A stretch of DNA of 64,000 bases from Escherichia coli (GCF_051903065.1 NZ_CP178438.1); one strand, 5' to 3'; shown: positions 7,308-25,894, counted from the first letter of the stretch. Numbers and translations: made by a program. The notes: generated by a model from the letters alone, not told the origin.

Positions 7308-7310
7308 GTT

Positions 7311-8659: not shown

Positions 8660-9709
8660 ATGGAAACCCCTCAACCCGATAAAACGGGCATGCACATTCT
8701 GCTCAAGCTGGCCTCGCTGGTAGTGATCCTCGCGGGCATTCACGCAGCGGCAGATATCATTGTGCAGCTGTTACTGGCGCTGTTTTTTGCCATCGTCCTC
8801 AACCCGCTCGTCACCTGGTTTATTCGTCGGGGAGTACAACGCCCCGTTGCCATTACGATTGTAGTGGTGGTGATGCTGATCGCACTAACCGCGCTGGTCG
8901 GCGTACTGGCGGCATCGTTTAACGAATTTATCTCTATGCTGCCGAAGTTTAATAAGGAGCTGACGCGCAAACTTTTTAAATTGCAGGAGATGTTGCCTTT
9001 TCTTAATTTGCATATGTCGCCGGAGCGAATGCTGCAGCGGATGGACTCGGAAAAAGTGGTTACCTTCACCACAGCGCTAATGACCGGGCTTTCCGGGGCA
9101 ATGGCGAGCGTGCTTTTGCTGGTGATGACCGTAGTTTTTATGCTGTTTGAAGTGCGCCACGTCCCTTACAAAATGCGTTTTGCATTGAATAATCCACAGA
9201 TTCATATCGCCGGACTACACCGCGCACTTAAAGGCGTTTCGCATTATCTGGCGTTAAAGACGCTACTCAGTTTATGGACAGGTGTCATCGTCTGGCTGGG
9301 GCTGGAGCTGATGGGGGTGCAGTTTGCGCTGATGTGGGCAGTACTGGCGTTTTTGCTCAACTACGTGCCCAATATCGGCGCGGTAATTTCCGCCGTACCG
9401 CCAATGATTCAGGTGCTGCTGTTTAATGGTGTTTACGAATGTATTCTGGTCGGCGCATTGTTTTTAGTGGTCCATATGGTCATCGGCAATATTTTAGAAC
9501 CACGGATGATGGGCCATCGCCTGGGGATGTCCACCATGGTGGTATTTCTTTCATTGTTAATTTGGGGATGGCTGCTCGGCCCGGTAGGGATGCTACTTTC
9601 GGTGCCATTAACCAGCGTGTGTAAAATCTGGATGGAAACGACGAAAGGCGGCAGCAAACTGGCGATTTTACTGGGGCCGGGCAGACCGAAAAGTCGGTTA
9701 CCGGGTTAA
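8660..9709 (+). CDS. yhhT: AI-2E family (PerM-like) transporter YhhT
   Basis: Start at METPQPDKTG (8660); polytopic membrane protein. Confidence 0.85.
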   Translation: METPQPDKTGMHILLKLASLVVILAGIHAAADIIVQLLLALFFAIVLNPLVTWFIRRGVQRPVAITIVVVVMLIALTALVGVLAASFNEFISMLPKFNKELTRKLFKLQEMLPFLNLHMSPERMLQRMDSEKVVTFTTALMTGLSGAMASVLLLVMTVVFMLFEVRHVPYKMRFALNNPQIHIAGLHRALKGVSHYLALKTLLSLWTGVIVWLGLELMGVQFALMWAVLAFLLNYVPNIGAVISAVPPMIQVLLFNGVYECILVGALFLVVHMVIGNILEPRMMGHRLGMSTMVVFLSLLIWGWLLGPVGMLLSVPLTSVCKIWMETTKGGSKLAILLGPGRPKSRLPG

Positions 9710-9720
9710 TAGCACCTCCT

Positions 9721-9729
9721 GAGCAGGCA
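9721..9729. repeat. Left copy of 9-bp target-site duplication (GAGCAGGCA) flanking IS1
   Basis: Identical 9-mer immediately precedes the IS1 left end and follows its right end (10498-10506). Confidence 0.85.
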
Positions 9730-9784
9730 GGTGATGCTGCCAACTTACTGATTTAGTGTATGATGGTGTTTTTGAGGTGCTCCA

Positions 9785-10060
9785 GTGGCTTCTGTTTCTA
9801 TCAGCTGTCCCTCCTGTTCAGCTACTGACGGGGTGGTGCGTAACGGCAAAAGCACCGCCGGACATCAGCGCTATCTCTGCTCTCACTGCCGTAAAACATG
9901 GCAACTGCAGTTCACTTACACCGCTTCTCAACCCGGTACGCACCAGAAAATCATTGATATGGCCATGAATGGCGTTGGATGCCGGGCAACAGCCCGCATT
10001 ATGGGCGTTGGCCTCAACACGATTTTACGTCACTTAAAAAACTCAGGCCGCAGTCGGTAA
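9785..10060 (+). CDS. insA: IS1 InsA
   Basis: 91 aa [39 protein letters not shown]... zinc-finger/HTH; GTG start. Confidence 0.9.
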
Positions 10061-10482
10061 CCTCGCGCATACAGCCGGGCAGTGACGTCATCGTCTGCGC
10101 GGAAATGGACGAACAGTGGGGCTATGTCGGGGCTAAATCGCGCCAGCGCTGGCTGTTTTACGCGTATGACAGGCTCCGGAAGACGGTTGTTGCGCACGTA
10201 TTCGGTGAACGCACTATGGCGACGCTGGGGCGTCTTATGAGCCTGCTGTCACCCTTTGACGTGGTGATATGGATGACGGATGGCTGGCCGCTGTATGAAT
10301 CCCGCCTGAAGGGAAAGCTGCACGTAATCAGCAAGCGATATACGCAGCGAATTGAGCGGCATAACCTGAATCTGAGGCAGCACCTGGCACGGCTGGGACG
10401 GAAGTCGCTGTCGTTCTCAAAATCGGTGGAGCTGCATGACAAAGTCATCGGGCATTATCTGAACATAAAACACTATCAATAA
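9979..10482 (+). CDS. insB: IS1 InsB frame (expressed as InsAB' transposase by -1 frameshift)
   Basis: 167-aa ORF overlapping insA 3' end in the -1 frame. Confidence 0.85.
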
Positions 10483-10497
10483 GTTGGAGTCATTACC

Positions 10498-10506
10498 GAG
10501 CAGGCA
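10498..10506. repeat. Right copy of 9-bp target-site duplication (GAGCAGGCA)
   Basis: Direct repeat of 9721-9729. Confidence 0.85.
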
Positions 10507-10865
10507 ATGGCCACCGTTTATCTAACAGTGGCCATTTGATTTGAGGAAATGATGAAACATTATTCAGAAAATTAATTTAAAAAAACCATTCCTTAAGTCA
10601 AATATATATAAACGCCGAATAGCGATTAAATCCTTCTCAAAGAATGCACTGATAACATTGTGTTATTTTTATTGCCTCATTTTTCTCACTCACTTATAGT
10701 TGGTCCCTGCTGGCAGTAATTTAGTCATTTCAGAGATTTTTACTCTGATGTGCACTTACTGACTTATCTCACAAGTAATTTTTTCTCTAAATAAAGAATA
10801 GTGATGCCAGCAATTACAGTTAAAACTTGCTTTACTCGTAAAAACAATACTTTAATGGGGTTCTA

Positions 10866-11255
10866 ATGAGACATTACATGAAATGGTTTGCGGCTATTGC
10901 TGTTGTGGGTGCTTTAGCGGGTTGCGCGCGTACTGCGCCAATTGATCAGGTTCACTCAACCGTCAGCGCTGGTCATACCCAGGAACAAGTGAAAAAAGCG
11001 ATTCTGAAAGCTGGCGTTGAACGCAAATGGATTATGTCCGAAGCCGGACAAGGCATAATTAAAGCACGTCAACAGTCACGCGATCATTCAGCGGAAATAC
11101 GCATTAACTACACGGCATCCAGCTACGATATCAATTATGAAAATAGCCAGAACCTTCAAGCGTCAGGCGGACAAATTCATAAAAACTACAATCGCTGGGT
11201 CCGCAATCTCGACAAAGATATTCAACTGAATTTGTCAGCGGGCGCAGATTTATAA
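10866..11255 (+). CDS. Putative lipoprotein, first gene of the biosynthetic island
   Basis: 129 aa with signal peptide and lipobox (VGALAGC); preceded by a 360-bp AT-rich leader. Confidence 0.6.
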   Translation: MRHYMKWFAAIAVVGALAGCARTAPIDQVHSTVSAGHTQEQVKKAILKAGVERKWIMSEAGQGIIKARQQSRDHSAEIRINYTASSYDINYENSQNLQASGGQIHKNYNRWVRNLDKDIQLNLSAGADL

Positions 11256-11314
11256 TTCCTCCTAAAGTCGGGCCGTTGCGGTCCGATAATAATTTAATTC
11301 CCTCTTAACAGGTT

Positions 11315-12382
11315 GTGCCCAACATGTACGAACAGGATTCTCTTAGCGCACTGGATGCGATTACCGAAGCTCAACGCATTGCCTTTGCCCCTATGCTTTT
11401 TCAAACAGCACTCTGCCTACGTAATGCGGGTGTACTTTCATATCTGGATCGGCAAGGCAAACATGGCGCAACGCTGGCTGATATCACCGAACATAGCCAT
11501 ATCAACGAATATGCTGCCAGCGTTCTGTTAGATATGGGCTTAAGCGGGCGAATTATTACCTGTAAAGAGGGAATTTATTACCTGGCGAAAATCGGTCATT
11601 ACCTCCTGCATGACACTATGACTCGCGTGAATATGGATTTCACCCAGGATGTCTGTTACCAGGGGCTCTTCTTCCTCGCCGATTCACTCAATGAAGGAAA
11701 ACCTTCCGGGTTAAAAGTATTTGGCGACTGGTCGACGATATATCCGGCACTTTCGCAATTACCAGACGCCGCTCGTGAAAGCTGGTTTGCGTTTGATCAT
11801 TACTATTCAGATGGCGCATTTAACGCCGCACTGCCTTATGTATTCGCCAACAACCCCACAACATTGTACGATGTAGGCGGCAATACGGGTAAGTGGGCTT
11901 TGCGTTGCTGCAAATACAATGAAAACATCGCCGTGACGTTATTAGATCTGCCACAACAAATCGTACTAGCGAAAGAAAATATCGCGAATGCAGGTTTTTC
12001 TGATCGCATAGATTTCCATGCGGTGGATATGCTAAGCGATGCCCCATTACCGGGCGAGGCTGATATCTGGTGGATGAGCCAATTTTTAGACTGTTTTTCA
12101 CCCGAACAAATAATTAGCATACTCAGCAAAATTGCCAGCGTAATGAAGCCTGGCGCAAAAGTTTGCATCATGGAGTTGTTCTGGGATGCGCAGCGGTTTG
12201 AAGCAGCATCGTTTAGCCTGAACGCGTCCTCACTTTATTTTACCTGCATGGCAAACGGTAACAGCCGTTTCTATAGTGCAGAGAAATTTTACGACTATCT
12301 GAATAAAGCAGGATTCCAGGTAGCAGAGCGCCACGATAATTTAGGCGTTGGGCATACACTTTTGATATGCCAAAAGAAATAA
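11315..12382 (+). CDS. Class I SAM-dependent methyltransferase (ApeB-like)
   Basis: 355 aa with glycine-rich SAM motif LYDVGGNTGKWAL; alternative ATG start at 11324. Confidence 0.8.
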   Translation: MPNMYEQDSLSALDAITEAQRIAFAPMLFQTALCLRNAGVLSYLDRQGKHGATLADITEHSHINEYAASVLLDMGLSGRIITCKEGIYYLAKIGHYLLHDTMTRVNMDFTQDVCYQGLFFLADSLNEGKPSGLKVFGDWSTIYPALSQLPDAARESWFAFDHYYSDGAFNAALPYVFANNPTTLYDVGGNTGKWALRCCKYNENIAVTLLDLPQQIVLAKENIANAGFSDRIDFHAVDMLSDAPLPGEADIWWMSQFLDCFSPEQIISILSKIASVMKPGAKVCIMELFWDAQRFEAASFSLNASSLYFTCMANGNSRFYSAEKFYDYLNKAGFQVAERHDNLGVGHTLLICQKK

Positions 12383-12422
12383 TCGTCACTTAATAATTTT
12401 GGTTTACCGCGGGCGCGCGTTG

Positions 12423-13145
12423 ATGAAATTTACATTAAATATTACCGACTGGCAGGCACTGGCGCCTGGACTTAGCGAAGCGCAGCAATGGCAAGCATGG
12501 TCGCGCCAGCCGTGGGCGATTGACCCTGCCGCGCCGTTGGCAAAATTAAGTGAACTGCCAATGATGACCGCCCGCCGCCTCAGTTCAGGCAGCAAACTGG
12601 CTGTTGAATGCGGTCTGGCAATGCTACGCCGCCATCAGCCAGACGCCGTTTTGTATACCAGTCGTCATGGCGAACTGGAGCGCAATTACCGCATTGTTCA
12701 TGCACTGGCAACCGAACAGGCGCTTTCTCCGACCGACTTCGCGCTCTCCGTACACAACTCTTCCGTGGGTAACCTGACCATTGCGGCCAAACAGCCGATC
12801 GTTTCGTCATCGCTTTCGGCTGGTCGCGACACTTTCCAGCAAGGTTTGTGTGAAGTGCTTAGCCTGTTACAAGCGGGATACCAGCGCGTGCTGATGGTCG
12901 ATTTTGACGGTTTCCTGCCCGAGTTTTATCACCCACAACTGCCATCAGAAATGCCGACCTGGCCGTACGCCGTCGCGCTGGTGATTGAAGCTGGCGATGA
13001 GTGGCAATGTGAAACGCAGTCAGCCATTGCGGGCAATGAAACAACACTGCCGCAAAGCATGTTGTTTTTACAGCACTATTTACAAAATGTAGACACATTT
13101 TCACTGCCTGGCGAGCGCGTGCAATGGCGCTGGAGCCACAGATGA
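12423..13145 (+). CDS. Ketosynthase N-terminal-domain-like protein, possible chain-length-factor partner (ApeC-like)
   Basis: About 240 aa, thiolase-like N-terminal half only; lacks the HGTAT and GHTLGA catalytic His motifs present in the two full ketosynthases of the island; start taken at ATG 12423. Confidence 0.6.
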   Translation: MKFTLNITDWQALAPGLSEAQQWQAWSRQPWAIDPAAPLAKLSELPMMTARRLSSGSKLAVECGLAMLRRHQPDAVLYTSRHGELERNYRIVHALATEQALSPTDFALSVHNSSVGNLTIAAKQPIVSSSLSAGRDTFQQGLCEVLSLLQAGYQRVLMVDFDGFLPEFYHPQLPSEMPTWPYAVALVIEAGDEWQCETQSAIAGNETTLPQSMLFLQHYLQNVDTFSLPGERVQWRWSHR

Positions 13146-13963
13146 GTAAGCTGATGTCACGTCTGGAGTGGACCTGGCGACTGGTCATGACCGGGTTATG
13201 TTTTGCCCTGTTTGGTCTCGGCGGCCTGCTGCTTTCTGTCGTGTGGTTTAACATATTGTTAGTTTTGGTGTGGGATACTTCCCGCCGCCGTCGTTTGGCG
13301 CGTCGCAGCATTGCCGCCAGTTTTCGCCTGTTTTTAACTGTCGCGAAAGGGCTTGGCGTGCTGGATTATCGTATTGATGGCGCTGAAATTTTACGTCAGG
13401 AACGCGGTTGCCTCGTCGTAGCCAATCATCCCACGCTGATCGATTACGTGCTGCTGGCGTCAGTCATGCCAGAAACTGACTGCCTGGTGAAAAGCGCACT
13501 GTTAAAAAATCCTTTTCTTGGCGGCGTCGTGCGGGCGGCAGATTATTTAATCAACAGCGAAGCTGAAACCCTGTTACCCCGCTGCCAACAGCGACTGGCA
13601 CAGGGTGACACTATCCTGATTTTCCCCGAAGGCACACGAACGAAGCCCGGTGAAAAAATGACGCTGCAGCGCGGGGCGGCGAATATTGCCGTGCGCTGCG
13701 CCAGCGATTTACGCATCGTGACAATCGGCTGTAGCGAGCATCTGCTGGATAAACAAAGTAAATGGTATGACGTTCCACCTGACCGGCCGTTTTTTACGGT
13801 TGCAGTCCATGGTCGGGTTGAAATCAATAAATTTTACGATGCAACTTCACAAGAACCGGCGCTGGCAGCAAGGCAGTTAAACCGGCATCTTTTGCTTCAA
13901 TTACAACAAGGTTGTTTACCTCTCTCAGGAATAAATAATGCAAGCGCTTTATCTGGAAATTAA
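13142..13963 (+). CDS. Lysophospholipid (PlsC-type) acyltransferase (ApeD-like)
   Basis: HX4D motif (NHPTLID) and FPEGTRT motif; N-terminal TM helix; ATG overlaps upstream stop (ATGA). Confidence 0.8.
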   Translation: MSKLMSRLEWTWRLVMTGLCFALFGLGGLLLSVVWFNILLVLVWDTSRRRRLARRSIAASFRLFLTVAKGLGVLDYRIDGAEILRQERGCLVVANHPTLIDYVLLASVMPETDCLVKSALLKNPFLGGVVRAADYLINSEAETLLPRCQQRLAQGDTILIFPEGTRTKPGEKMTLQRGAANIAVRCASDLRIVTIGCSEHLLDKQSKWYDVPPDRPFFTVAVHGRVEINKFYDATSQEPALAARQLNRHLLLQLQQGCLPLSGINNASALSGN

Positions 13964-14195
13964 AAACCTCATCATCAGCACCCTCAATCTGGACGAGTTG
14001 ACGCCTGATGATATCGATACCGACGCGCCGCTGTTTGGCGACGGTTTAGGGCTGGACTCTATCGATGCCCTGGAACTGGGACTGGCAGTAAAAAATGAGT
14101 ACGGCATCGTGCTCTCTGCGGAAAGCGAAGAGATGCGTCAGCACTTTTTCTCCGTCGCCACTCTGGCCTCTTTCATTGCTGCGCAACGTGCCTGA
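13938..14195 (+). CDS. Acyl carrier protein 1
   Basis: 85 aa with phosphopantetheine-attachment motif LGLDSIDALEL. Confidence 0.8.
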   Translation: MQALYLEIKNLIISTLNLDELTPDDIDTDAPLFGDGLGLDSIDALELGLAVKNEYGIVLSAESEEMRQHFFSVATLASFIAAQRA

Positions 14196-14206
14196 GGAAA
14201 GCCATC

Positions 14207-14458
14207 ATGACAGAACAACAAACCGTCTATCAGGAAGTCTCAGCCCTGCTGGTTAAGCTGTTTGAAATCGATCCGCAGGACATCAAACCTGAAGCGCGCC
14301 TGTACGAAGATCTGGAACTGGACAGCATCGACGCCGTTGACATGATTGTGCACCTGCAAAAGAAAACCGGTAAGAAAATCAAGCCGGAAGAGTTTAAAGC
14401 AGTGCGTACAGTCCAGGATGTCGTCGAGGCTGTAGAACGCCTGCTACAAGAAGCCTGA
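14207..14458 (+). CDS. Acyl carrier protein 2
   Basis: 83 aa with LELDSIDAVDM; GAGGAAAG Shine-Dalgarno. Confidence 0.85.
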   Translation: MTEQQTVYQEVSALLVKLFEIDPQDIKPEARLYEDLELDSIDAVDMIVHLQKKTGKKIKPEEFKAVRTVQDVVEAVERLLQEA

Positions 14459-14462
14459 TCTG

Positions 14463-15044
14463 ATGTCGGGCATTCGCTCGCTACCGATGATTAAGCTGCT
14501 GACTGGATTATTGCTGCTCGCCTGGCCGTTTGTGATTTGGTTTGGCTTAGCGCATAACGGCCTGCACTGGCTGTTACCGCTAATGGCGTTGCTGCTTTTG
14601 TTGCGTCTGCGCCAGACCCGTCGCCAGGCGGGGCCTTTACAAGCCGTCACGCAACTCGTCGCTGTCGTGGGCATCGCATTATGTGTCGCCAGCTTTATGT
14701 TGAAAACGCACCAGCTACTGCTGTTTTACCCGGTAGTGGTTAACGCGGTCATGCTGGCGGTTTTTGGCGGTTCGCTGTGGTCGGCAATGCCGATAGTTGA
14801 GCGGCTGGCGCGGTTGCAGGAGCCAGACCTCCCGGAAAAGGGCGTGCGCTATACCCGCCACGTCACGCAAATCTGGTGCGGCTTTTTCATCATTAACGGT
14901 GGAATTGCCCTCTTTACCGCGCTTTATGCCGATATGTCGTTATGGACCGCCTGGAACGGCATGATTGCTTATTTGTTGATGGGGACGTTAATGGCTGGTG
15001 AATGGCTGGTGCGCCGCCAGGTTATGAAAAGAGATCGCGCATGA
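14463..15044 (+). CDS. Integral membrane protein (ApeG-like)
   Basis: 193 aa, several predicted TM helices. Confidence 0.7.
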   Translation: MSGIRSLPMIKLLTGLLLLAWPFVIWFGLAHNGLHWLLPLMALLLLLRLRQTRRQAGPLQAVTQLVAVVGIALCVASFMLKTHQLLLFYPVVVNAVMLAVFGGSLWSAMPIVERLARLQEPDLPEKGVRYTRHVTQIWCGFFIINGGIALFTALYADMSLWTAWNGMIAYLLMGTLMAGEWLVRRQVMKRDRA

Positions 15045-16402
15045 AGCAGACCTTACCGCTTGCACGCTGGCTGACTGCGCCACGCCCTGATGACACACCC
15101 ATTGCGTGGCTGAACGAAAGTACCTGGACGCTGGGCGATTTGCGTCACGATGTCGCGCAACTTATCTGCCGCTTGCAGCAACAGCCGGGTGAACGCTGGG
15201 CGCTGTGCTTTGAGAACAGCTATCTGTTTATCGTTGCCCTGCTCGCCACGCTACACGCCGGAAAAACGCCGGTGCTTCCGGGGCATAACCGTGTTATCCA
15301 GCTTAACGAGCAACGTGAACTTTTTGATGGTGTGCTTAGCGACAGCGAACTTAACTGGCAAGGTTCATTGCTGTTGGTAGCAAGTTCCCCACAAGTCGCG
15401 ACACAATCCTTCACCTTTGCCGCTATAGCGCCAGAGGCTTATATCGAGCTGTTTACCTCCGGTTCCACGGGACAGCCGAAACGGGTGATTAAACCTGTTC
15501 ATTTGCTGGACCGTGAAGCAGAACTGCTGGCTGAACGATTAGGCGCACGTCTGGCGGATTGTCGTGTCATCGGTTCCGTATTGCCGCAGCATTTGTACGG
15601 CCTGACTTTTCGCGTTTTCCTGCCCATGGCGCTGGGATTACCCCTACATGCCGCCATGCTCTGGTATGTCGAACAGTTTGCCGCGTTGAGTCATCAGCAT
15701 CGCTATATCTTCATCAGCAGCCCGGCATTTTTGAAGCGTCTGGATACACAGCTTTCCCCACCGCCCGTTCAGGTGCTTCTCTCTGCTGGCGGTGAGCTAC
15801 CGTGGCAGGATGTACAACACACCGCGAGCTGGCTGCGCGTCTGGCCTGATGAAATCTACGGCAGCACGGAAACCGGCGTCATCGCCTGGCGCTACCGCGA
15901 ACAAGAGCAACGCCGCTGGCTACCCCTCCCAGGTATGCAGTTCCAGGCCGAAGGCGATGCCTTTCGCCTCTTTTCACCGCTGATAGCGGAAGATAACGGC
16001 CTGTTACTCGACGATATCTTACAGTTTAGCGAAGATGGTCAGTTCCATCTGATGGGGCGTCGTGGGCGCATCGTTAAGATTGAAGAAAAACGTATTTCAC
16101 TCCAGGAAGTAGAACAACGTCTACTGGCGCTGGACGGCATTCGCGAGGCGGCGGCAGTTCCCGTTACGCGCGGCGGGCGTCAGAGCATAGGCGTTTTGCT
16201 GGTGCTGGATGACGAAGCTCATCTGCAATGGCAGAACGGCGGCGGGCATAGCCAGGAAATGACCTGGCGGCGTTTACTGCGCCCGACGCTGGAGCCAGTT
16301 GCTATTCCGCGTTACTGGCGCGTTATTGATGAAATGCCAGTAAACAGTATGAACAAGCGTGTCTATGCGCAATTACAGGAGTTATTTCATGAAGCCCCAT
16401 GA
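15041..16402 (+). CDS. AMP-dependent acyl/aryl-CoA or -ACP ligase (adenylation enzyme, ApeH-like)
   Basis: AMP-binding motif FTSGSTGQPKRV; ATG overlaps upstream stop. Confidence 0.85.
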   Translation: MKQTLPLARWLTAPRPDDTPIAWLNESTWTLGDLRHDVAQLICRLQQQPGERWALCFENSYLFIVALLATLHAGKTPVLPGHNRVIQLNEQRELFDGVLSDSELNWQGSLLLVASSPQVATQSFTFAAIAPEAYIELFTSGSTGQPKRVIKPVHLLDREAELLAERLGARLADCRVIGSVLPQHLYGLTFRVFLPMALGLPLHAAMLWYVEQFAALSHQHRYIFISSPAFLKRLDTQLSPPPVQVLLSAGGELPWQDVQHTASWLRVWPDEIYGSTETGVIAWRYREQEQRRWLPLPGMQFQAEGDAFRLFSPLIAEDNGLLLDDILQFSEDGQFHLMGRRGRIVKIEEKRISLQEVEQRLLALDGIREAAAVPVTRGGRQSIGVLLVLDDEAHLQWQNGGGHSQEMTWRRLLRPTLEPVAIPRYWRVIDEMPVNSMNKRVYAQLQELFHEAP

Positions 16403-16742
16403 AATCGAGCGCCATCAGGCACAAACGAATCACCTTGAAATTGTTCTGCATCTCAGGGCGGATCTGTTCTGGTTTCGCGGTCATTTTGCCGTGCAACCAT
16501 TACTCCCAGGAGTTGCGCAAATCGATTGGGCGATGAGCTACGCGCTCAATCTGCTCGCGCCTGGCTGGCGTTTTCACTCCATTCAGAACATAAAATTCCA
16601 GTCTCCGTTGCTGCCGGAAAACCGCGTCACGCTCGCGCTTAACTGGCAGGAAGAACGCCAGATTCTGAGCTTTAGCTATCAGCGTCACGACGGTGACGCC
16701 CGCCACACCGCCAGTAGCGGGAAGATACGCCTATGTCGGTAA
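16389..16742 (+). CDS. Hotdog-fold dehydratase (FabA/FabZ-like)
   Basis: FRGHFAVQPLLPG catalytic-His motif. Confidence 0.75.
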   Translation: MKPHEIERHQAQTNHLEIVLHLRADLFWFRGHFAVQPLLPGVAQIDWAMSYALNLLAPGWRFHSIQNIKFQSPLLPENRVTLALNWQEERQILSFSYQRHDGDARHTASSGKIRLCR

Positions 16743-18409
16743 ACTTTTCTCCCTGCGTGTTGATCCCCTGCTACAACCACGGCGCGATGATGCCGGGCGT
16801 GCTGGCGCGTCTTAAGCCATTTAATCTGCCCTGTATTGTGGTGGACGACGGCAGCGATGCCGCCACGCAACAGCAACTGGACAGTCTGCTTGCCGAACAG
16901 CCTGGCGTGACCTTAATCCGCCTGGCAGAAAACGCAGGCAAAGGCGCGGCAGTGATGCGTGGCTTACAGGCAGCGGCAGACGCAGGGTTCAGCCATGCGG
17001 TGCAGGTGGATGCTGACGGTCAACATGCGATTGAAGATATCCCCAAACTGCTGGCACTCGCTGAACAACACCCTGCGGCGCTGATCTCCGGCCAGCCAAT
17101 TTACGATGACTCCATCCCCCGCTCACGGCTTTACGGGCGCTGGGTCACCCACGTCTGGGTATGGATCGAAACGCTCTCCCTGCAACTGAAAGACAGCATG
17201 TGCGGCTTTCGCGTTTATCCGGTTGCGCCAACGCTGCAACTGGCAAAACACGCCACCATCGGCAAGCGGATGGATTTCGACACTGAAGTGATGGTGCGCC
17301 TCTACTGGCAGGGAAACACCAGCTATTTCGTGCCGACCCGCGTCACCTATCCACTGGACGGGCTTTCGCATTTTGATGCCCTGAAAGATAACGTCCGCAT
17401 CTCGCTCATGCACACGCGTCTGTTTTTCGGCATGTTGCCGCGTATTCCTTCACTACTGATGCGCCGCTCTTCCAGCCACTGGGCGCGGCAGAGTGAAGTG
17501 AAAGGATTATGGGGAATGCGCCTGATGCTGCTGGTCTGGCGTCTGCTGGGAAGAACGGCGTTTAGCGCGCTGCTTTACCCGGTGGTGGGCGTCTACTGGC
17601 TCACTGCTGCTCGTGCGCGCAAAGCGTCGCAAGACTGGCTCGCCCGTGTACGACAGCATCAACCACAGGCGGCAAAACTCAACAGCTATCAGCACTTTCT
17701 ACGTTTCGGTAATGCCATGCTCGACAAAATCGCCAGCTGGCGCGGCGAGCTACAACTGGGGCACGATGTGCTGTTTGCGCCAGGCGCAGAAGCGGCGCTT
17801 GACGTCAGCGATCCGCGCGGCAAATTGCTGCTGGCCTCGCATCTTGGCGATGTGGAAGTGTGCCGGGCGCTGGCAAAAATTCAGGGCTACAAAACCATTA
17901 ACGCGCTGGTGTTTAGCGAAAACGCCCAACGCTTTAAACAGATAATGCAGGAGATGGCTCCTCAGGCAGGTATTAACCTGATGCCGGTAACAGATATCGG
18001 CCCGGAAACCGCCATCCTGCTGAAAGAGAAGCTGGATAACGGCGAATGGGTGGCGATTGTCGGTGACCGCATCGCCGTCACCCCGCAACGCGGCGGCGAC
18101 TGGCGCGTCTGCTGGAGTCCGTTTATGGGCCAGCCTGCGCCCTTCCCACAGGGGCCGTTTATTCTCGCGTCTATTTTGCGCTGCCCGGTGAATCTGATTT
18201 TCGCCCTGCGCCAGCGCGGCAAGCTGCATATTCACTGCGAAACCTTTGCCGACCCGCTGCTGTTGCCGCGTGGCGAACGCCAACAGGCGCTGCAAAACGC
18301 TATCGACCACTACGCCGCGCGTCTGGAACATTACGCGCTCCAGTCGCCCCTCGACTGGTTTAATTTTTTCGATTTCTGGCAACTGCCGGAAATTCAGGAC
18401 AAGGAGTAA
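16733..18409 (+). CDS. Two-domain glycosyltransferase family 2 / LpxL-type lipid acyltransferase fusion (ApeJ-like)
   Basis: N-terminus VVDDGSDAATQ and VDADGQH (GT2 DXD); C-terminal half resembles lauroyl/myristoyl acyltransferases. Confidence 0.8.
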   Translation: MSVNFSPCVLIPCYNHGAMMPGVLARLKPFNLPCIVVDDGSDAATQQQLDSLLAEQPGVTLIRLAENAGKGAAVMRGLQAAADAGFSHAVQVDADGQHAIEDIPKLLALAEQHPAALISGQPIYDDSIPRSRLYGRWVTHVWVWIETLSLQLKDSMCGFRVYPVAPTLQLAKHATIGKRMDFDTEVMVRLYWQGNTSYFVPTRVTYPLDGLSHFDALKDNVRISLMHTRLFFGMLPRIPSLLMRRSSSHWARQSEVKGLWGMRLMLLVWRLLGRTAFSALLYPVVGVYWLTAARARKASQDWLARVRQHQPQAAKLNSYQHFLRFGNAMLDKIASWRGELQLGHDVLFAPGAEAALDVSDPRGKLLLASHLGDVEVCRALAKIQGYKTINALVFSENAQRFKQIMQEMAPQAGINLMPVTDIGPETAILLKEKLDNGEWVAIVGDRIAVTPQRGGDWRVCWSPFMGQPAPFPQGPFILASILRCPVNLIFALRQRGKLHIHCETFADPLLLPRGERQQALQNAIDHYAARLEHYALQSPLDWFNFFDFWQLPEIQDKE

Positions 18410-18412
18410 AGG

Positions 18413-18835
18413 GTGCTTAACGATCCCCGATTTACCGCTGAAGTCGAGCTGACCATTCCCTTTCACGACGTCGATATGATGGGCGTGGCCTGGCACGGTA
18501 ACTATTTTCGCTACTTTGAAGTGGCCCGCGAGGCGCTGCTCAACCAGTTCAATTACGGCTATCGGCAGATGAAAGAGTCCGGTTATTTGTGGCCAGTGGT
18601 CGATGCGCGGGTGAAATATCGCCACGCTCTCACCTTTGAGCAACGCATCCGCGTGCGTGCGCATATCGAAGAGTTCGAAAACCGTCTGCGGATTGGCTAT
18701 CAGATTTTCGATGCCGAAACGGGCAAACGCGCCACCACCGGATACACCATTCAGGTCGCGGTCGACGAGCAAAGCCGCGAACTGTGCTTTGTCAGCCCCG
18801 ATATTCTGTTTGAACGCATGGGAGTCAAACCATGA
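18413..18835 (+). CDS. 4HBT/YbgC-type acyl thioesterase
   Basis: GTG start 7 nt after AAGGAG; HDVDMMGVAWHGNYFRYFE hotdog thioesterase signature. Confidence 0.8.
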   Translation: MLNDPRFTAEVELTIPFHDVDMMGVAWHGNYFRYFEVAREALLNQFNYGYRQMKESGYLWPVVDARVKYRHALTFEQRIRVRAHIEEFENRLRIGYQIFDAETGKRATTGYTIQVAVDEQSRELCFVSPDILFERMGVKP

Positions 18836-19437
18836 AATTTTTACCGCTGCTGGCGCTGCTGATTAGCCCGTTTGTGAGCGCCCTGACCCTGGACGATCTT
18901 CAACAACGTTTTACCGAACAGCCGGTGATCCGCGCCCATTTCGATCAAACCCGGACGATTAAAGATCTGCCGCAGCCGCTGCGATCTCAGGGCCAGATGT
19001 TGATCGCCCGCGACCAGGGGTTATTGTGGGATCAAACCTCACCGTTCCCCATGCAACTATTACTGGACGATAAACGCATGGTGCAGGTGATCAACGGTCA
19101 GCCGCCGCAAATCATCACGGCAGAAAATAACCCGCAGATGTTCCAGTTTAACCACCTGCTGCGCGCGCTGTTCCAGGCCGATCGCAAAGTGCTGGAACAA
19201 AACTTCCGCGTCGAATTTGCCGACAAAGGCGAAGGCCGCTGGACGCTGCGCCTGATGCCGACCACCACGCCACTGGATAAAATTTTCAACACCATCGATC
19301 TCGCCGGGCAAACCTATCTGGAGAGCATTCAGCTTAATGATAAACAGGGCGATCGCACCGATATTGCTCTTACCCAACATCAACTGACACCAGCGCAACT
19401 GACCGATGACGAACGCCAACGTTTTGCCGCCCAGTAA
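18832..19437 (+). CDS. LolA-like outer-membrane lipoprotein carrier protein
   Basis: 201 aa with signal peptide; size and position between thioesterase and MMPL transporter as in APE clusters. Confidence 0.7.
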   Translation: MKFLPLLALLISPFVSALTLDDLQQRFTEQPVIRAHFDQTRTIKDLPQPLRSQGQMLIARDQGLLWDQTSPFPMQLLLDDKRMVQVINGQPPQIITAENNPQMFQFNHLLRALFQADRKVLEQNFRVEFADKGEGRWTLRLMPTTTPLDKIFNTIDLAGQTYLESIQLNDKQGDRTDIALTQHQLTPAQLTDDERQRFAAQ

Positions 19438-21724
19438 ACGCCCCGCGCTGTTATGGGGGCTAGTCTGCCTGGTCATGGCGGCGGCGTTGCTGATCCTGCT
19501 GCCGCAATCACGGCTGAACAGTAGCGTGCTGGCTATGTTACCCAAACAGGCGATGGGCGATATTCCCCCAGCGCTGAATGACGGCTTTATGCAGCGTCTG
19601 GACCGCCAACTGGTGTGGCTGGTCAGCCCCGGTAAAGAGGCTAATCCCAGGGTCGCTCAGGAGTGGCTGACGCAGCTGCAAAAATCCGCTGCGCTTGGCG
19701 ACATTAAAGGGCCAATGGATGCCGCCAGCCAGCAGGCGTGGGGAGCGTTTTTCTGGCAGCACCGCAACGGCCTGATTGACCACGACACCCGCGCCCGCCT
19801 GCAAAACGGCGGCGAAGCGCAGGCGCAGTGGATCCTCTCCCAGCTTTATTCTGCATTCTCCGGGGTAAGCGGCAAGGAGCTGCAAAACGATCCGCTGATG
19901 TTAATGCGCGGCTCGCAGCTGGCGATGGCAAAAAATGGCCAGCGTTTGCGGCTGATGGACGGCTGGCTGGTGACGCAGGATCCCCAGGGCAACTACTGGT
20001 ATCTGCTGCACGGCGAACTGGCGGGATCGTCGTTTGATATGCAGCAAACCCACCAGCTCATCACGACCCTGAATACGCTGGAAAAGGATCTGAAAACGCG
20101 TTACCCACAGGCGCAGTTGCTCTCGCGCGGCACGGTATTTTACAGCGATTACGCCAGTCAACAGGCGAAGCAGGATATCTCAACCCTGGGCGTGGCAACG
20201 CTGCTGGGGGTGATATTGCTGATTGTGGCGGTGTTCCGCTCTTTGCGCCCGTTGCTGCTTTGCGTGATTTCCATCGGCATCGGCGCGCTGGCGGGAACGG
20301 TCGCCACTTTATTGATTTTCGGTGAATTACACCTGATGACGCTGGTGATGAGCATGAGCGTTATCGGCATTTCCGCTGACTACACGCTCTATTATCTCAC
20401 CGAGCGGATGGTTCACGGCAACGACGTTTCGCCGTGGCAAAGCCTGGCGAAAGTACGCAATGCCTTGCTACTGGCGCTGCTCACCACCGTGGCGGCGTAT
20501 CTGATTATGATGCTCGCCCCCTTCCCCGGCATTCGCCAGATGGCGATTTTTGCCGCCGTCGGGTTGAGCGCCTCCTGTCTGACCGTCCTGTTCTGGCATC
20601 CGTGGCTGTGCCGTGGCCTGCCGGTGCGTCCGGTTCCGGCGATGGCGCTGATGCTACGCTGGCTGGCAGCGTGGCGGCGTAATAAAAAACTGTCGCTGGG
20701 TCTGCCCGTCGCGCTGGCGCTGTTTTCGCTGGCGGGGATGTCAATGCTACGCGTCGATGACGATATCTCGCAGTTACAGGCGCTACCGCAGCATATTCTG
20801 GCGCAGGAAAAAGCCATTACCGCCCTGACCAGGCAGAGCGTCGATCAAAAATGGTTTGTGGTTTACGGCGATTCGCCACAGCAAACATTGCGGCGACTGG
20901 AGAAATATACCGCCTCACTTGAGTATGCGAAAAAAGAGGGGCTTATCAGCAACTACCGCACCATTCCGCTGAACTCCCTTGCGCGGCAGGAGGAAGATTT
21001 ACAACTGCTGAAAACGGCGGCCCCGACAGTAACAAAAGCGCTGCAAAATGCCGGGCTGACGGCAGTGAACCCGGATCTCAACGCCATGCCAGTGAACGTT
21101 GATGAATGGCTGGCAAGCCCCGCCAGTGAAGGCTGGCGTCTGCTGTGGCTGACGCTGGAAAACGGCGAAAGCGGCGTACTGGTGCCGGTTGAAGGGGTTA
21201 AAAGTAGCGCGTTGATGCAGGAAATCGCCAGCTATTACCCTTGCGGCATTGCCTGGGTTGATCGCAAAAGCACCTTTGATGAATTGTTCGCACTTTACCG
21301 TTATGTCTTAACCGGCTTGTTGCTGGTGGCGCTGGCGGTGATTGCCTGCGGCGCAGTGGCCCGTCTCGGCTGGCGCAAAGGGCTTATCAGCCTGGTGCCT
21401 TCGGTGCTTTCGCTGGGCTGCGGTCTGGCGGTGCTGGCGATGAGCGGGCAGGCGGTGAATATCTTTTCGCTTCTGGCGCTGGTGCTGGTGCTTGGCATCG
21501 GCATCAATTACACGCTGTTTTTCAGTAATCCGCGCGGCACACCGTTAACTTCGCTACTGGCGATCACACTGGCAATGCTCACCACCTTGCTGACGCTGGG
21601 AATGTTGGTATTCAGCGCCACCCAGGCCATCAGCAGTTTTGGCATTGTGCTGGTGAGCGGTATTTTCACCGCCTTCCTGCTTTCGCCGCTGGCTATGCCC
21701 GATAAAAAGAGAACAAAAAAATGA
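19406..21724 (+). CDS. MMPL/RND-superfamily exporter
   Basis: 772 aa with two clusters of TM helices separated by soluble loops. Confidence 0.8.
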   Translation: MTNANVLPPSKRPALLWGLVCLVMAAALLILLPQSRLNSSVLAMLPKQAMGDIPPALNDGFMQRLDRQLVWLVSPGKEANPRVAQEWLTQLQKSAALGDIKGPMDAASQQAWGAFFWQHRNGLIDHDTRARLQNGGEAQAQWILSQLYSAFSGVSGKELQNDPLMLMRGSQLAMAKNGQRLRLMDGWLVTQDPQGNYWYLLHGELAGSSFDMQQTHQLITTLNTLEKDLKTRYPQAQLLSRGTVFYSDYASQQAKQDISTLGVATLLGVILLIVAVFRSLRPLLLCVISIGIGALAGTVATLLIFGELHLMTLVMSMSVIGISADYTLYYLTERMVHGNDVSPWQSLAKVRNALLLALLTTVAAYLIMMLAPFPGIRQMAIFAAVGLSASCLTVLFWHPWLCRGLPVRPVPAMALMLRWLAAWRRNKKLSLGLPVALALFSLAGMSMLRVDDDISQLQALPQHILAQEKAITALTRQSVDQKWFVVYGDSPQQTLRRLEKYTASLEYAKKEGLISNYRTIPLNSLARQEEDLQLLKTAAPTVTKALQNAGLTAVNPDLNAMPVNVDEWLASPASEGWRLLWLTLENGESGVLVPVEGVKSSALMQEIASYYPCGIAWVDRKSTFDELFALYRYVLTGLLLVALAVIACGAVARLGWRKGLISLVPSVLSLGCGLAVLAMSGQAVNIFSLLALVLVLGIGINYTLFFSNPRGTPLTSLLAITLAMLTTLLTLGMLVFSATQAISSFGIVLVSGIFTAFLLSPLAMPDKKRTKK

Positions 21725-22305
21725 TCAAATCCACATTCTGGCGAGCGTTCGCCCTGACCGCTACGCTTATCCTCACCGGCTGTAGCCACTCGCAACCAGA
21801 ACAGGAAGGCCGCCCGCAGGCGTGGCTGCAACCTGGCACGCGCATCACGCTGCCGGCACCAGGGATTTCACCCGCAGTCAATTCGCAGCAACTGTTGACC
21901 GGCAGCTTCAACGGCAAAACCCAGTCGCTGCTAGTAATGCTTAACGCCGACGACCAGAAAATCACCCTTGCCGGGCTGTCGTCGGTCGGCATTCGCCTGT
22001 TTCTGGTGACCTACGATGCAAAAGGGCTACGCGCCGAGCAATCCATCGTCGTCCCGCAGTTGCCGCCCGCAAGTCAGGTGCTGGCTGACGTAATGCTCAG
22101 CCACTGGCCGATTAGCGCCTGGCAACCGCAACTTCCCGCAGGATGGACACTTCGCGACAACGGTGACAAACGCGAGCTGCGTAACGCCAGCGGCAAACTG
22201 GTCACGGAAATCACCTATCTGAATCGCCAGGGAAAACGCGTGCCAATCAGCATTGAGCAGCATGTCTTTAAATACCACATCACCATTCAATACTTAGGTG
22301 ACTGA
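21721..22305 (+). CDS. Lipoprotein (DUF3261-like)
   Basis: Lipobox LTGCSHS; ATGA overlap with upstream gene. Confidence 0.65.
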   Translation: MIKSTFWRAFALTATLILTGCSHSQPEQEGRPQAWLQPGTRITLPAPGISPAVNSQQLLTGSFNGKTQSLLVMLNADDQKITLAGLSSVGIRLFLVTYDAKGLRAEQSIVVPQLPPASQVLADVMLSHWPISAWQPQLPAGWTLRDNGDKRELRNASGKLVTEITYLNRQGKRVPISIEQHVFKYHITIQYLGD

Positions 22306-22306
22306 T

Positions 22307-23476
22307 ATGATTTATATTTCCGCCGTCGGCATGATCAACGCCCTGGGAAATAACCTTGACGAAATCGCAGCCAACCTGGCTCGCGGTGTCGCCCCCGGAA
22401 TGCGCCCACGCGCAGGCTGGTTGCAGGGGCATCCGCAGGCGGTCCTGGCTGGCGTGGATGGCGAGCTTCCGCTTATCCCGGAAAAATTCGCTGCGCATCG
22501 CTCGCGCAACAATCAGATCCTGCTGGCGGCGCTGGCGCAGCTCCAGCCGCAGGTTGATGACACTATAGCGAAATATGGTCGCGAGCGCATCGCGATTGTA
22601 CTTGGCACCAGCACCTCCGGCCTGCATGAAGGCGACACGCACGTTAACCTGCGCACCCACGGGCAGCCGAGCACCACATGGCATTACGCGCAACAGGAAC
22701 TCGGCGATCCGTCGCGTTTTCTCAGCCACTGGCTGGCGCTCGACGGCCCGGCTTATACCCTTTCAACCGCCTGCTCCTCCAGCGCCAGAGCGATGATCAG
22801 CGGGCGCAGGCTTATCGAGGCGGGGCTGGTCGATGCCGCCATTGTGGGTGGCGCAGACACCCTGAGCCGGATGCCGATTAACGGTTTTCACAGCCTCGAA
22901 TCGCTGTCGCCAACCTTATGTCAGCCGTTCGGTCGTGACCGCGCAGGTATCACCATTGGTGAAGGGGCGGGGCTAATGCTGCTGACCCGCGAACCGCAGC
23001 CCATCGCATTGCTGGGCGTTGGTGAATCGAGCGACGCTTACCATATTTCAGCTCCGCATCCGCAGGGCGAAGGAGCGATCCGCGCTATTAATCAGGCGCT
23101 GACCGATGCGCAGCTTACGCCGGATGACGTCGGCTATATCAACCTGCACGGCACCGCCACACAGCTCAACGACCAGATTGAATCAATGGTGGTTAACGCC
23201 CTGTTTGGCGAACGCGTACCGTGCAGCTCCACCAAACATTTGACCGGACACACGCTGGGCGCAGCGGGCATTACCGAGGCGGCAATTAGTATGTTGATTT
23301 TACAGCGTGATTTACCGCTGCCCGCTCAGGACTTCAGCCTGTCGCCGCGCGATCCCACGCTGCCACCGTGTGGCATTATCGAAAAACCGCAGCCGCTGGC
23401 ACGTCCGGTGATCCTGTCCAATTCCTTCGCCTTTGGCGGCAATAACGCCAGCATTCTGCTCGGGAGGGTTTCGTGA
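22307..23476 (+). CDS. Beta-ketoacyl-ACP synthase (ApeO-like)
   Basis: Cys-His-His triad motifs LSTACSSS, LHGTATQ, GHTLGAAG. Confidence 0.85.
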   Translation: MIYISAVGMINALGNNLDEIAANLARGVAPGMRPRAGWLQGHPQAVLAGVDGELPLIPEKFAAHRSRNNQILLAALAQLQPQVDDTIAKYGRERIAIVLGTSTSGLHEGDTHVNLRTHGQPSTTWHYAQQELGDPSRFLSHWLALDGPAYTLSTACSSSARAMISGRRLIEAGLVDAAIVGGADTLSRMPINGFHSLESLSPTLCQPFGRDRAGITIGEGAGLMLLTREPQPIALLGVGESSDAYHISAPHPQGEGAIRAINQALTDAQLTPDDVGYINLHGTATQLNDQIESMVVNALFGERVPCSSTKHLTGHTLGAAGITEAAISMLILQRDLPLPAQDFSLSPRDPTLPPCGIIEKPQPLARPVILSNSFAFGGNNASILLGRVS

Positions 23477-23937
23477 GCCACTATTTATCCCCCGGTGCTT
23501 ATCTGCCCCACGACGCGCCCATGTTACTGCTGGAAGACGTGGTGAGCGTCAGCGATGACAGCGCGGTGTGCCGCGTGACGGTTTCGCCCAGTGGCGTACT
23601 GGCACCGTTTCTCGACCCGGACGGCAATCTCCCCGGCTGGTTTACCCTTGAACTGATGGCGCAAACCGTCGGCGTCTGGTCTGGCTGGCATCGCCACCAG
23701 CAGGGCAAAAACAGTATTGAGTTAGGGATGATACTGGGCGCGCGTGAATTGCTTTGCACCACTGGCATTCTGCCCGCAGGCCAGACGCTGACCATTACCG
23801 TCAAACTGCTGATGCAAGACGATCGCTTCGGCAGTTTTGAGTGCAGCATCAACGACGGCGAGGCAACGGGCCGCATTAACACCTTCCAGCCGACCGCGGA
23901 AGAACTTACCACCCTGTTTCAACAAGGAGCGTCCTGA
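23473..23937 (+). CDS. Hotdog-fold dehydratase (FabA-like)
   Basis: 154-aa hotdog-sized ORF; GTGA overlap with upstream ketosynthase. Confidence 0.7.
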   Translation: MSHYLSPGAYLPHDAPMLLLEDVVSVSDDSAVCRVTVSPSGVLAPFLDPDGNLPGWFTLELMAQTVGVWSGWHRHQQGKNSIELGMILGARELLCTTGILPAGQTLTITVKLLMQDDRFGSFECSINDGEATGRINTFQPTAEELTTLFQQGAS

Positions 23938-24668
23938 TGAGTCGTTCAGTTCTGGTTACTGGTGCCAGCAAAGGCATTGGTCGCGCCATCGCCTGCCAAC
24001 TGGCGGCAGACGGCTTTAACATTGGCGTTCACTATCACCGTGACGCCACAGGCGCTCAGGAAACGCTGAATGCCATTGTCGCCAATGGGGGTAACGGGCG
24101 TTTGCTCAGTTTCGACGTCGCAAACCGCGAACAGTGTCGGGAAGTGCTGGAGCATGAGATCGCGCAACACGGTGCCTGGTACGGCGTGGTCAGTAACGCC
24201 GGGATCGCCCGCGATGCCGCTTTTCCGGCTTTAAGCGATGACGACTGGGATGCGGTGATCCACACCAACCTCGACAGTTTCTACAACGTCATTCAGCCGT
24301 GCATTATGCCGATGATCGGCGCACGCCAGGGTGGGCGCATCATCACGCTATCCTCGGTTTCCGGCGTAATGGGCAATCGCGGCCAGGTGAATTACAGCGC
24401 TGCCAAAGCCGGAATTATCGGCGCAACAAAAGCGCTGGCTATCGAACTCGCGAAGCGCAAAATCACCGTCAACTGCATCGCGCCGGGGCTTATTGATACC
24501 GGGATGATCGAAATGGAAGAGAGCGCTCTGAAAGAGGCAATGTCGATGATCCCCATGAAACGTATGGGCCAGGCGGAAGAAGTTGCCGGGCTTGCCAGTT
24601 ATTTAATGTCTGATATTGCGGGTTACGTCACCCGCCAAGTTATTTCCATCAACGGAGGGATGTTATGA
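23937..24668 (+). CDS. 3-oxoacyl-ACP reductase (FabG-like SDR)
   Basis: TGASKGIGRAIA Rossmann motif, catalytic YSAAK. Confidence 0.9.
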   Translation: MSRSVLVTGASKGIGRAIACQLAADGFNIGVHYHRDATGAQETLNAIVANGGNGRLLSFDVANREQCREVLEHEIAQHGAWYGVVSNAGIARDAAFPALSDDDWDAVIHTNLDSFYNVIQPCIMPMIGARQGGRIITLSSVSGVMGNRGQVNYSAAKAGIIGATKALAIELAKRKITVNCIAPGLIDTGMIEMEESALKEAMSMIPMKRMGQAEEVAGLASYLMSDIAGYVTRQVISINGGML

Positions 24669-25894
24669 CACGTCGCGTAGTGATTACAGGAATGGGCGGC
24701 GTGACTGCCTTTGGTGAAAACTGGCAGGACGTTTCTGCACGCTTACTGGCGTATGAAAATGCGGTGCGCAAAATGCCGGAGTGGCAGGTCTACGACGGGC
24801 TGCACACCCTGCTTGGCGCGCCTGTTGATGATTTCACGCTACCGGAGCACTACACCCGCAAGCGTATCCGTGCGATGGGCCGCGTGTCGCAAATGTCGAC
24901 CCGTGCCAGCGAGCTGGCGTTAGAGCAGGCAGGGTTGATTGGCGATCCGATATTAACCAGCGGCGAAACGGGCATTGCGTACGGTTCATCGACCGGCAGT
25001 ACCGGCCCGGTAAGCGAGTTCGCCACCATGCTGACGGAAAAGCACACCAATAACATCACTGGCACCACCTATGTGCAGATGATGCCGCACACCACCGCCG
25101 TTAATACTGGCCTCTTTTTCGGCCTGCGCGGGCGGGTGATCCCAACCTCCAGCGCCTGTACTTCCGGCAGCCAGGCAATCGGTTATGCGTGGGAAGCCAT
25201 TCGCCACGGTTATCAAACGGTGATGGTTGCTGGTGGTGCCGAAGAGTTATGTCCTTCAGAAGCAGCGGTATTTGATACGCTTTTCGCCACCAGCCAGCAC
25301 AATGATGCGCCGAAAACCACACCTTCACCGTTCGATGAAAACCGCGACGGGCTGGTGATTGGTGAAGGCGCAGGTACGCTCATTCTCGAAGAACTGGAAC
25401 ACGCCAAAGCGCGCGGCGCGACCATTTACGGTGAAATCGTCGGCTTTGCGACGAACTGCGACGCGGCACATATTACCCAGCCGCAGCGCGAAACCATGCA
25501 GTATTGTATGGAGCAATCGCTGAAAATCGCCGGGTTAAGCGCACAAGATATCGGCTATATTTCAGCGCATGGTACGGCGACCGATCGCGGTGATATGGCA
25601 GAAAGTCTGGCGACAGCAACCATTTACGGTGATAATGTGCCGCTCTCCTCGCTGAAAAGTTATTTTGGTCATACGCTTGGTGCCTGTGGCGCGCTCGAAG
25701 CCTGGATGAGTCTGCAAATGATGCGCGAAGGTTGGTTTGCGCCTACGCTAAACCTGAATAAACCAGACCCGAATTGTGGCGCGCTGGATTACATCATGCA
25801 TGAAGCCCGCAAGGTTGATTGTGAGTTTTTACAGAGTAACAACTTTGCCTTTGGCGGCATTAATACATCCATCATCATTAAACGTTGGCCCTGA
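24665..25894 (+). CDS. Beta-ketoacyl-ACP synthase I/II-like (ApeR-like)
   Basis: SSACTSGS, AHGTATDRGD, GHTLGACGA. Confidence 0.9.
   Translation: MTRRVVITGMGGVTAFGENWQDVSARLLAYENAVRKMPEWQVYDGLHTLLGAPVDDFTLPEHYTRKRIRAMGRVSQMSTRASELALEQAGLIGDPILTSGETGIAYGSSTGSTGPVSEFATMLTEKHTNNITGTTYVQMMPHTTAVNTGLFFGLRGRVIPTSSACTSGSQAIGYAWEAIRHGYQTVMVAGGAEELCPSEAAVFDTLFATSQHNDAPKTTPSPFDENRDGLVIGEGAGTLILEELEHAKARGATIYGEIVGFATNCDAAHITQPQRETMQYCMEQSLKIAGLSAQDIGYISAHGTATDRGDMAESLATATIYGDNVPLSSLKSYFGHTLGACGALEAWMSLQMMREGWFAPTLNLNKPDPNCGALDYIMHEARKVDCEFLQSNNFAFGGINTSIIIKRWP

Follow-up and report, generated by a model that had tools for sequence, protein, structure and literature searches.

We analyzed a 64,000-nucleotide stretch of an Escherichia coli genome (NZ_CP178438.1; hereafter, the window), in which the open reading frame (ORF) at 16733..18409 (+), with an ATG start and coding for 558 amino acids plus stop, is apeJ (c1194 of strain CFT073) of the aryl polyene (APE) cluster. 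An earlier note, made from the sequence alone, had not recognized the gene as the named apeJ (c1194) and had proposed that one polypeptide combines a GT2 glycosyltransferase with an LpxL-type acyltransferase. The two-domain architecture is upheld here by families, profiles, fold and conserved residues for both catalytic domains. ApeJ probably tailors the APE lipid of E. coli as a bifunctional enzyme, which would glycosylate a phospholipid and then perform its acylation with the aryl polyene.

The identity of the gene follows from several observations. E. coli NZ_CP083585 carries a 100%-identical copy with equal ends, annotated as "glycosyltransferase family 2 protein," and the quantitative PCR primers published for c1194 (apeJ) in 2026 match inside the ORF with 0 mismatches at 17896-17916 (+) and 18024-18043 (-). 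The window strain is not CFT073, and nothing essential differs between the two ApeJ proteins. Of 5426 complete E. coli genomes, 823 carry the gene, in every case on the chromosome, with 95-99% identity among most copies, and full-length orthologues occur across the Enterobacteriaceae. It lies between the genes of the ApeI dehydratase and the ApeK thioesterase, sharing 10 nt with the 3′ end of apeI, and apeK begins at a GTG located 3 nt past the apeJ stop; the same slot is kept in four APE clusters from other genomes and contigs that we inspected (L002, L004, L006, and L007). The gene is already known, having been named, genetically studied and described as bifunctional. Gene J (c1194) is listed as "glycosyltransferase / acyltransferase" in Table 1 of Johnston et al. 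(2021; PMC8253772), this label has been in the literature since at least 2020-2021, and a 2026 E. coli preprint still gives apeJ only as "glycosyltransferase/acyltransferase." When the literature was searched for later ApeJ biochemistry linking aryl polyenes and GalNAc with acyltransferases and phosphatidic acid, the papers returned were all unrelated. The evidence for glycosyl and acyl transfer on the APE lipid, the putative function of ApeJ, is genetic and comes from deletions.

The N-terminal part of ApeJ (residues 1-245; 16733..17467, +) is a GT2 domain of the GT-A type and includes a long juxtamembrane helix at residues 216-247. PF00535 (Glycos_transf_2) matches residues 8-131 with 74 bits against a gathering cut-off of 23.3 (E 1.8e-20). 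Both motifs quoted in the earlier note are present: VVDDGSD (residues 36-42; 16838..16858, +) corresponds to the first Asp motif for nucleotide-sugar binding (D38, D39), and VDADGQH (residues 92-98; 17006..17026, +) to the DXD metal-binding motif, extended to DxDxQH. These assignments are based on conservation in an alignment of 47 full-length fused homologues, where D39, G40, D93, D95, Q97, and H98 are invariant (47/47) and residue 38 is D in 41 sequences and N in six. VDADGQH is in register with "MDADLQH" of dolichyl-phosphate mannose synthase (DPMS), "IDADLQD" of GtrB and "LDADLQN" of ArnC. When the single sequence was searched against the PDB, matches were found only in the glycosyltransferase half, namely DPMS, ArnC, and GtrB, which improved to 6.8e-14, 2.3e-12, and about 2e-11, respectively, with the profile of the 47 homologues.

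An AlphaFold2 model built on the same alignment reached a mean pLDDT (predicted local distance difference test) of 90.9 and a predicted template modeling (TM) score of 0.76, residues 241-260 being its only weak stretch (pLDDT 57-67). Foldseek searches with the N-terminal half of the model retrieved ArnC, GtrB, and DPMS, and the retaining GT-A enzymes GpgS and MpgS were equally close as ArnC. Among NCBIfam models, the top match of ApeJ is PpgS (2e-14), a polyprenyl-phosphate N-acetylgalactosamine (GalNAc) synthase; its score of 53.5 bits compares with an equivalog cut-off of 370, that of the ArnC model is 24.6 bits against 529, and ApeJ reached the equivalog score of none of the named lipid-phosphate glycosyltransferases in NCBIfam. 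The domain belongs to the GT2 subgroup that transfers a sugar onto a lipid phosphate monoester, and its top named relative is GalNAc-specific.

DPMS (5mlz), GtrB (5ekp), ArnC (9hwj), and PpgS are the best sequence and fold relatives of residues 1-245 and have DxDxQ(H/D/N) in common; going by its NCBIfam name, PpgS uses uridine diphosphate (UDP)-GalNAc. These relatives act on polyprenyl or dolichyl phosphate, whereas the acceptor of ApeJ has been inferred in the literature to be a diacylglycerol phosphate. GtrB, ArnC, and DPMS also possess a transmembrane hairpin past the glycosyltransferase domain, but no clearly hydrophobic hairpin is found there in ApeJ, the 19-residue Kyte-Doolittle maximum beyond the domain being 1.38 (residues 264-293, with embedded Arg residues). 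In split clusters, the stand-alone GT2 genes end at the juxtamembrane helix. Some of the lipid-phosphate GT2 enzymes, such as PpgS with its NCBIfam profile of 226 positions, lack a transmembrane hairpin.

The C-terminal part (residues 249-558; 17477..18406, +) is a divergent LpxL/LpxM/PatA-type acyltransferase domain of PF03279 and the LPLAT superfamily, as indicated by homologues, profile and fold. A direct domain-wise Pfam search identified PF00535 in the first half of ApeJ, but no family at E<=1 for E. coli residues 236-558, and the only trace in NCBIfam was a faint PatA match (15-17 bits against a cut-off of 209). The assignment comes instead from relatives. An exhaustive phmmer search of 1.84 billion representative sequences recovered 3033 C-domain relatives at E<=1e-3, and in a 78-member alignment of the query plus stand-alone homologues, PF03279 (Lip_A_acyltrans) is matched by 72 of the 78 members, at best with 2.9e-19. 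The family profile finds Acinetobacter baumannii LpxM in the PDB (E 1.2e-7) with the H and E of the HX4E motif in register, and the C-terminal half of the model is closest in Foldseek to PatA (E 4e-11, TM 0.69), LpxM also being retrieved. The module begins with a helical, moderately hydrophobic region (residues 256-336; 17498..17740, +), modeled as helices 256-272, 274-291, 293-309, and 318-336, which probably sits at the membrane interface.

The H(X)4(D/E) motif of block 1 is present as H370-L-G-D-V-E375 (17840..17857, +), recognized by conservation and by its register with LpxM, and G444-D445-R446 (18062..18070, +) contains the acidic residue of block 3. No substitution of H370, G372, D445, R446, or G474 occurs in the fused set (47/47) or in the stand-alone set (78/78), and residue 375 is E or D throughout the former (47/47) and in 77/78 sequences of the latter; the LpxM structure 5knk is that of an E127A mutant, altered at the position aligned with E375. 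In PatA, HtrB, and MsbB, it is block 3, rather than the HX4D motif, that supplies the carboxylate paired with the catalytic His. D445 aligns with the block 3 "PD" of LpxM; it is likely the equivalent of this carboxylate and probably the charge-relay partner of H370. These results support two distinct and apparently competent catalytic domains in ApeJ, and searches back both of them.

The likeness of the second half to LpxL suggested in the earlier note holds at the level of the family (PF03279); functionally, however, PatA and VexE are closer than the lipid A enzymes. LpxL and LpxM (5kn7, 5knk) carry out the secondary acylation of lipid A, in which the hydroxyl acylated is that of an acyl chain and not of a sugar, and act in lipopolysaccharide (LPS) synthesis, whereas ApeJ is encoded in a pigment polyketide cluster. 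PatA of Mycobacterium (5f2t, 7ojt), structurally the closest to the C-terminal half of ApeJ, acylates O-6 of mannose in phosphatidylinositol mannosides, that is, a sugar of a glycophospholipid. It differs from ApeJ in being a stand-alone enzyme with 14-18% identity and in using palmitoyl-CoA, whereas an aryl polyene bound to an acyl carrier protein (ACP) is proposed as the donor for ApeJ. VexE, the Vi-antigen C-6 beta-hydroxyacyltransferase, resembles ApeJ by description: it shares the LPLAT fold of the LpxM/PatA kind, depends on an ACP, carries a second domain in fusion, and acylates C-6 of an N-acetylhexosamine destined for a glycolipid anchor. In contrast to ApeJ, its fusion partner is a set of tetratricopeptide repeats rather than a glycosyltransferase, its acyl group is beta-hydroxymyristate, and UDP-N-acetylglucosamine (UDP-GlcNAc) is acylated before the transfer.

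The chemistry of the end product has been solved in Xenorhabdus doucetiae, whose ApeJ has the same two-domain glycosyltransferase/acyltransferase description as that of E. coli. In this APE lipid (APEL), an ester bond joins the aryl polyene to O-6 of GalNAc, the anomeric carbon of which is connected through a phosphate to a glycerol carrying one saturated and one conjugated C26:5 acyl chain (Grammbitter et al.). A Xenorhabdus delta-apeJ mutant accumulates the unglycosylated diacyl-glycerol-3-phosphate (diacyl-G3P) intermediate, and a "bifunctional glycosyl/acyltransferase ApeJ" was proposed to add GalNAc and then to transfer the ApeE-bound polyene (Grammbitter et al.). In E. coli, a delta-apeJ strain kept partial pigmentation and made late intermediates (Johnston et al., 2021; PMC8253772). 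The expectation of the earlier note that the product of this island is both glycosylated and acylated agrees with the published Xenorhabdus lipid chemistry and with the delta-apeJ precursor.

Our domain analysis fits the proposal of Grammbitter et al. and makes it more specific, the relatives of the glycosyltransferase domain pointing to lipid-phosphate chemistry and those of the acyltransferase domain to acylation of a sugar at O-6 or C-6. The product structure and the delta-apeJ intermediate are taken from the literature on the Xenorhabdus homologue, and we infer the sugar donor, the direct phosphate acceptor, the ACP donor and the order of the two steps. In the proposed pathway, the diacyl-glycerol-3-phosphate acceptor would come from ApeD, the PlsC-type acyltransferase encoded at 13142..13963 (+; PF01553, E 1.3e-19; TIGR00530, E 3.3e-15), which fits this role because it matches 1-acylglycerol-3-phosphate acyltransferases in Pfam and NCBIfam searches. 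The GT2 domain, with its DxDxQH metal site, would then glycosylate the lipid phosphate to GalNAc-1-phospho-diacylglycerol, most likely from UDP-GalNAc. The LpxM/PatA-type domain would take the aryl polyene from the acyl carrier protein ApeE (13938..14195, +), its proposed donor, and esterify GalNAc O-6, with H370 as the general base supported by D445 and with chemistry like that of PatA (mannose O-6) and VexE (GlcNAc O-6). Both reactions would proceed on the cytoplasmic side of the inner membrane, after which ApeL, ApeM, and ApeN would export the lipid.

One feature of the published product bears on the glycosylation step of this pathway. GT2 enzymes invert, including every close relative of the ApeJ glycosyltransferase domain found here, and so a single transfer from UDP-alpha-GalNAc is expected to yield a beta product. 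Nuclear magnetic resonance data in the APEL preprint, however, show a doublet of 2.8 Hz for the anomeric proton once 31P is decoupled, indicating alpha-GalNAc-1-phosphate, which misfits a single inverting transfer by a DPMS-like GT2 enzyme. The supplement of this preprint neither mentions UDP nor discusses the anomeric outcome, and the published APE papers that we examined discuss neither the anomeric outcome nor the step order. Possible ways out are two inversions via a polyprenyl-phosphate-GalNAc carrier, a different donor, or an assignment error. We tentatively consider that the glycosylation itself could be atypical, either with a retaining glycosyltransferase acting on diacylglycerol phosphate or with a polyprenyl-phosphate-GalNAc carrier, perhaps acylated by the fused domain, whose sugar is moved on by a second enzyme, although we regard this as doubtful. 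To our knowledge, no retaining lipid-phosphate glycosyltransferase acting on diacylglycerol phosphate is known in the DPMS/PpgS clade, and Pfam and NCBIfam searches of the cluster proteins found no second transferase in the APE cluster of E. coli (APE_Ec). If the carrier-mediated route were true, the words "its carrier lipid" in the earlier note would be literally right.

The two reactions might also run in reverse, the acyltransferase domain first acylating O-6 of UDP-GalNAc with the ApeE-bound polyene and the GT2 domain then moving the acylated sugar to the lipid phosphate. VexE offers a precedent, as an ACP-dependent enzyme of the LpxM/PatA fold group that acylates UDP-GlcNAc at C-6 before glycosyl transfer; the accumulation of diacyl-G3P in a whole-gene delta-apeJ mutant is compatible with either order, and a domain fusion would favour channelling both ways. 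However, the authors of the APEL structure put the glycosyltransferase step first, PatA as the best fold match acts on a membrane glycolipid and not on a nucleotide sugar, and an aryl polyene of C26 scale attached to a soluble UDP-sugar would presumably be very hydrophobic. We consider this order unlikely.

Somewhat less likely again is a full carrier-lipid route, in which polyprenyl-phosphate-beta-GalNAc would be the product of the GT2 domain, as it is of PpgS and FlmF2, and would be acylated by the fused domain before a second inverting transfer delivers the sugar to the phosphate of diacyl-G3P. Such a route would account for the alpha anomer of the APEL, which requires either retention or two inversions, and it is in line with the nearest sequence relatives, all of which use polyprenyl or dolichyl phosphate, PpgS being the top NCBIfam match. 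A comparable case is found in Francisella, where alpha-galactosamine is added to the lipid A 1-phosphate via undecaprenyl-phosphate-GalNAc. Nevertheless, nothing in the cluster qualifies as the second transferase, GT-C-like or other (the 193-aa ApeG matches no family), the PpgS score lies far under its equivalog cut-off, and a periplasmic second step would need flipping, to which no gene is assigned. Retention would also be the simpler explanation, because the structural match to the retaining GpgS and MpgS is as close as that to ArnC.

It is very improbable that the C-terminal domain is a paralogue of the lipid A late acyltransferases and that the APE is anchored on lipid A or LPS instead of a phospholipid. 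PF03279 is indeed named "bacterial lipid A biosynthesis acyltransferase," LpxM is the best sequence match in the PDB, and lipid A was suggested as a possible anchor by Johnston et al. before the APEL structure was available. We rejected this reading because no LpxL, LpxM, or LpxP equivalog model of NCBIfam matches at E<=1, the solved APEL contains no lipid A, and the lipid accumulated by the delta-apeJ mutant is a glycerophospholipid; PatA and VexE also show that this fold acylates sugars outside lipid A.

The two halves of ApeJ are not fused in every APE cluster. Full-length GT2 fusions of 500-640 aa account for 46 of the 150 best C-domain representatives (62 when N-truncated and longer forms are included), stand-alone acyltransferases of 290-360 aa for 77, and fragments or other architectures for 11. 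An artefactual fusion (a frameshift, a mis-assembly or a decaying gene) or a dead domain in one half, which might be suspected from the missing Pfam match of the E. coli C-terminal half and from the separate genes in many other clusters, has a negligible probability and was rejected as refuted by conservation, since the same 558-aa ORF recurs in 822 complete E. coli records from 821 genomes, full-length orthologues span the Enterobacteriaceae, the 46 fused representatives are diverged, the catalytic residues of both halves are all conserved, and the model is of high confidence. E. coli is not alone in having the GT2-acyltransferase fusion, which is a common variant; for ten representatives, the member names of their sequence clusters gave Anaerobiospirillum (fused) and Sneathiella (split).

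All three split examples inspected (L002, L006, and L007) lie in syntenic APE clusters, with a GT2 gene of 246-264 aa directly upstream of the acyltransferase gene, and the two genes share an ATGA stop/start overlap in L002 and L006. The split GT2 genes end at positions equivalent to ApeJ residues 241-245 and the acyltransferase genes begin at 239-249, so that the fusion junction of ApeJ (residues 245-249, R-SSS-H; 17465..17479, +), a low-confidence linker in the model, coincides with the stop/start site of the split clusters. The fusion state of the ApeH (H), ApeI (I), glycosyltransferase and acyltransferase genes varies further. H and I are separate and the glycosyltransferase and acyltransferase are fused in the E. 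coli window; all four are separate genes in L002 (one contig, 7234-8981); H and I are fused and the other two separate in L006 (6504-9963) and L007 (6550-9951), which are two genomes; and a single 1185-aa H-I-glycosyltransferase-acyltransferase polypeptide is encoded in L004 (a metagenomic contig, 8001-11558). The gene order stays constant while the fusion state shifts, which argues that the glycosyltransferase and acyltransferase activities may work together.

In L006 (13207-14442) and L007 (13274-14506), which represent Sneathiella and a second genome, a tryptophan-halogenase-like flavin adenine dinucleotide (FAD) enzyme is encoded past the MMPL transporter, and this suggests that halogenated, xanthomonadin-like aryl polyenes are produced by these split clusters.

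Aryl polyene lipids protect from oxidative stress and promote biofilm formation. By joining the pigment to its membrane anchor, ApeJ would therefore decide whether the pigment reaches the outer membrane. Residues 245-249 provide a precise domain boundary that can be used for separate expression of the two halves, and the catalytic residues D93 and D95 (glycosyltransferase domain) and H370 and D445 (acyltransferase domain) are targets for mutation; the question of the anomeric configuration and step order of the ApeJ reaction remains of use.

The APE_Ec cluster comprises 18 genes, apeA-apeR (10878..25894, +), and is inserted between yhhT on one side and acpT/nikA on the other. Its products, assigned from the annotation of the near-identical record together with family searches, include a methyltransferase, a chain-length factor, a PlsC-type acyltransferase, two ACPs, a membrane protein and an AMP-binding enzyme, followed by the ApeI dehydratase, ApeJ, a 4HBT thioesterase, a LolA-like protein (ApeL), an MMPL transporter, a DUF3261 protein (ApeN), two ketosynthases, the ApeP dehydratase and a FabG-type reductase. 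The start of apeI is uncertain, a mechanically called ORF beginning with GTG at 16359 (127 aa, 16359-16742) and RefSeq placing it at 16389 (117 aa). ApeG (14463-15044) is a hydrophobic protein whose place in the gene order is conserved in every APE cluster inspected. Neither ApeG nor ApeA matches any Pfam or NCBIfam family, and searches of these databases gave no support to the literature label of ApeG as a "COG4648 pyrophosphatase."

The 4′-phosphopantetheinyl transferase gene acpT (25896-26483) begins 2 nt past apeR. In strains that lack the APE cluster, acpT adjoins yhhT and has no carrier proteins nearby, which we take to be the "orphaned AcpT" situation of K-12 as compared with island OI-138 of O157:H7. 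On the other side of the cluster, the yhhT-apeA interval contains a complete IS1 copy (9730-10497, 768 bp) with 23-nt terminal inverted repeats, which lies upstream of the APE cluster at a distance of about 380 bp. It encodes InsA (9785-10060) and InsB (9979-10482), has a 9-bp target duplication on its two sides (GAGCAGGCA; 9721-9729 and 10498-10506), and is absent from the otherwise near-identical NZ_CP083585. This insertion might change the expression of the APE cluster.

Farther from the cluster, the near-identical record has a hicA/hicB type II toxin-antitoxin pair annotated between yhhJ and nikR, at ~32037-32668 of the window. Two stretches have a low GC content (0.34-0.38 versus about 0.55 around them): ~38000-42000, containing two paralogous DUF4049 genes and yhiM, and ~58000-60000, containing a frameshifted hypothetical gene that adjoins slp.

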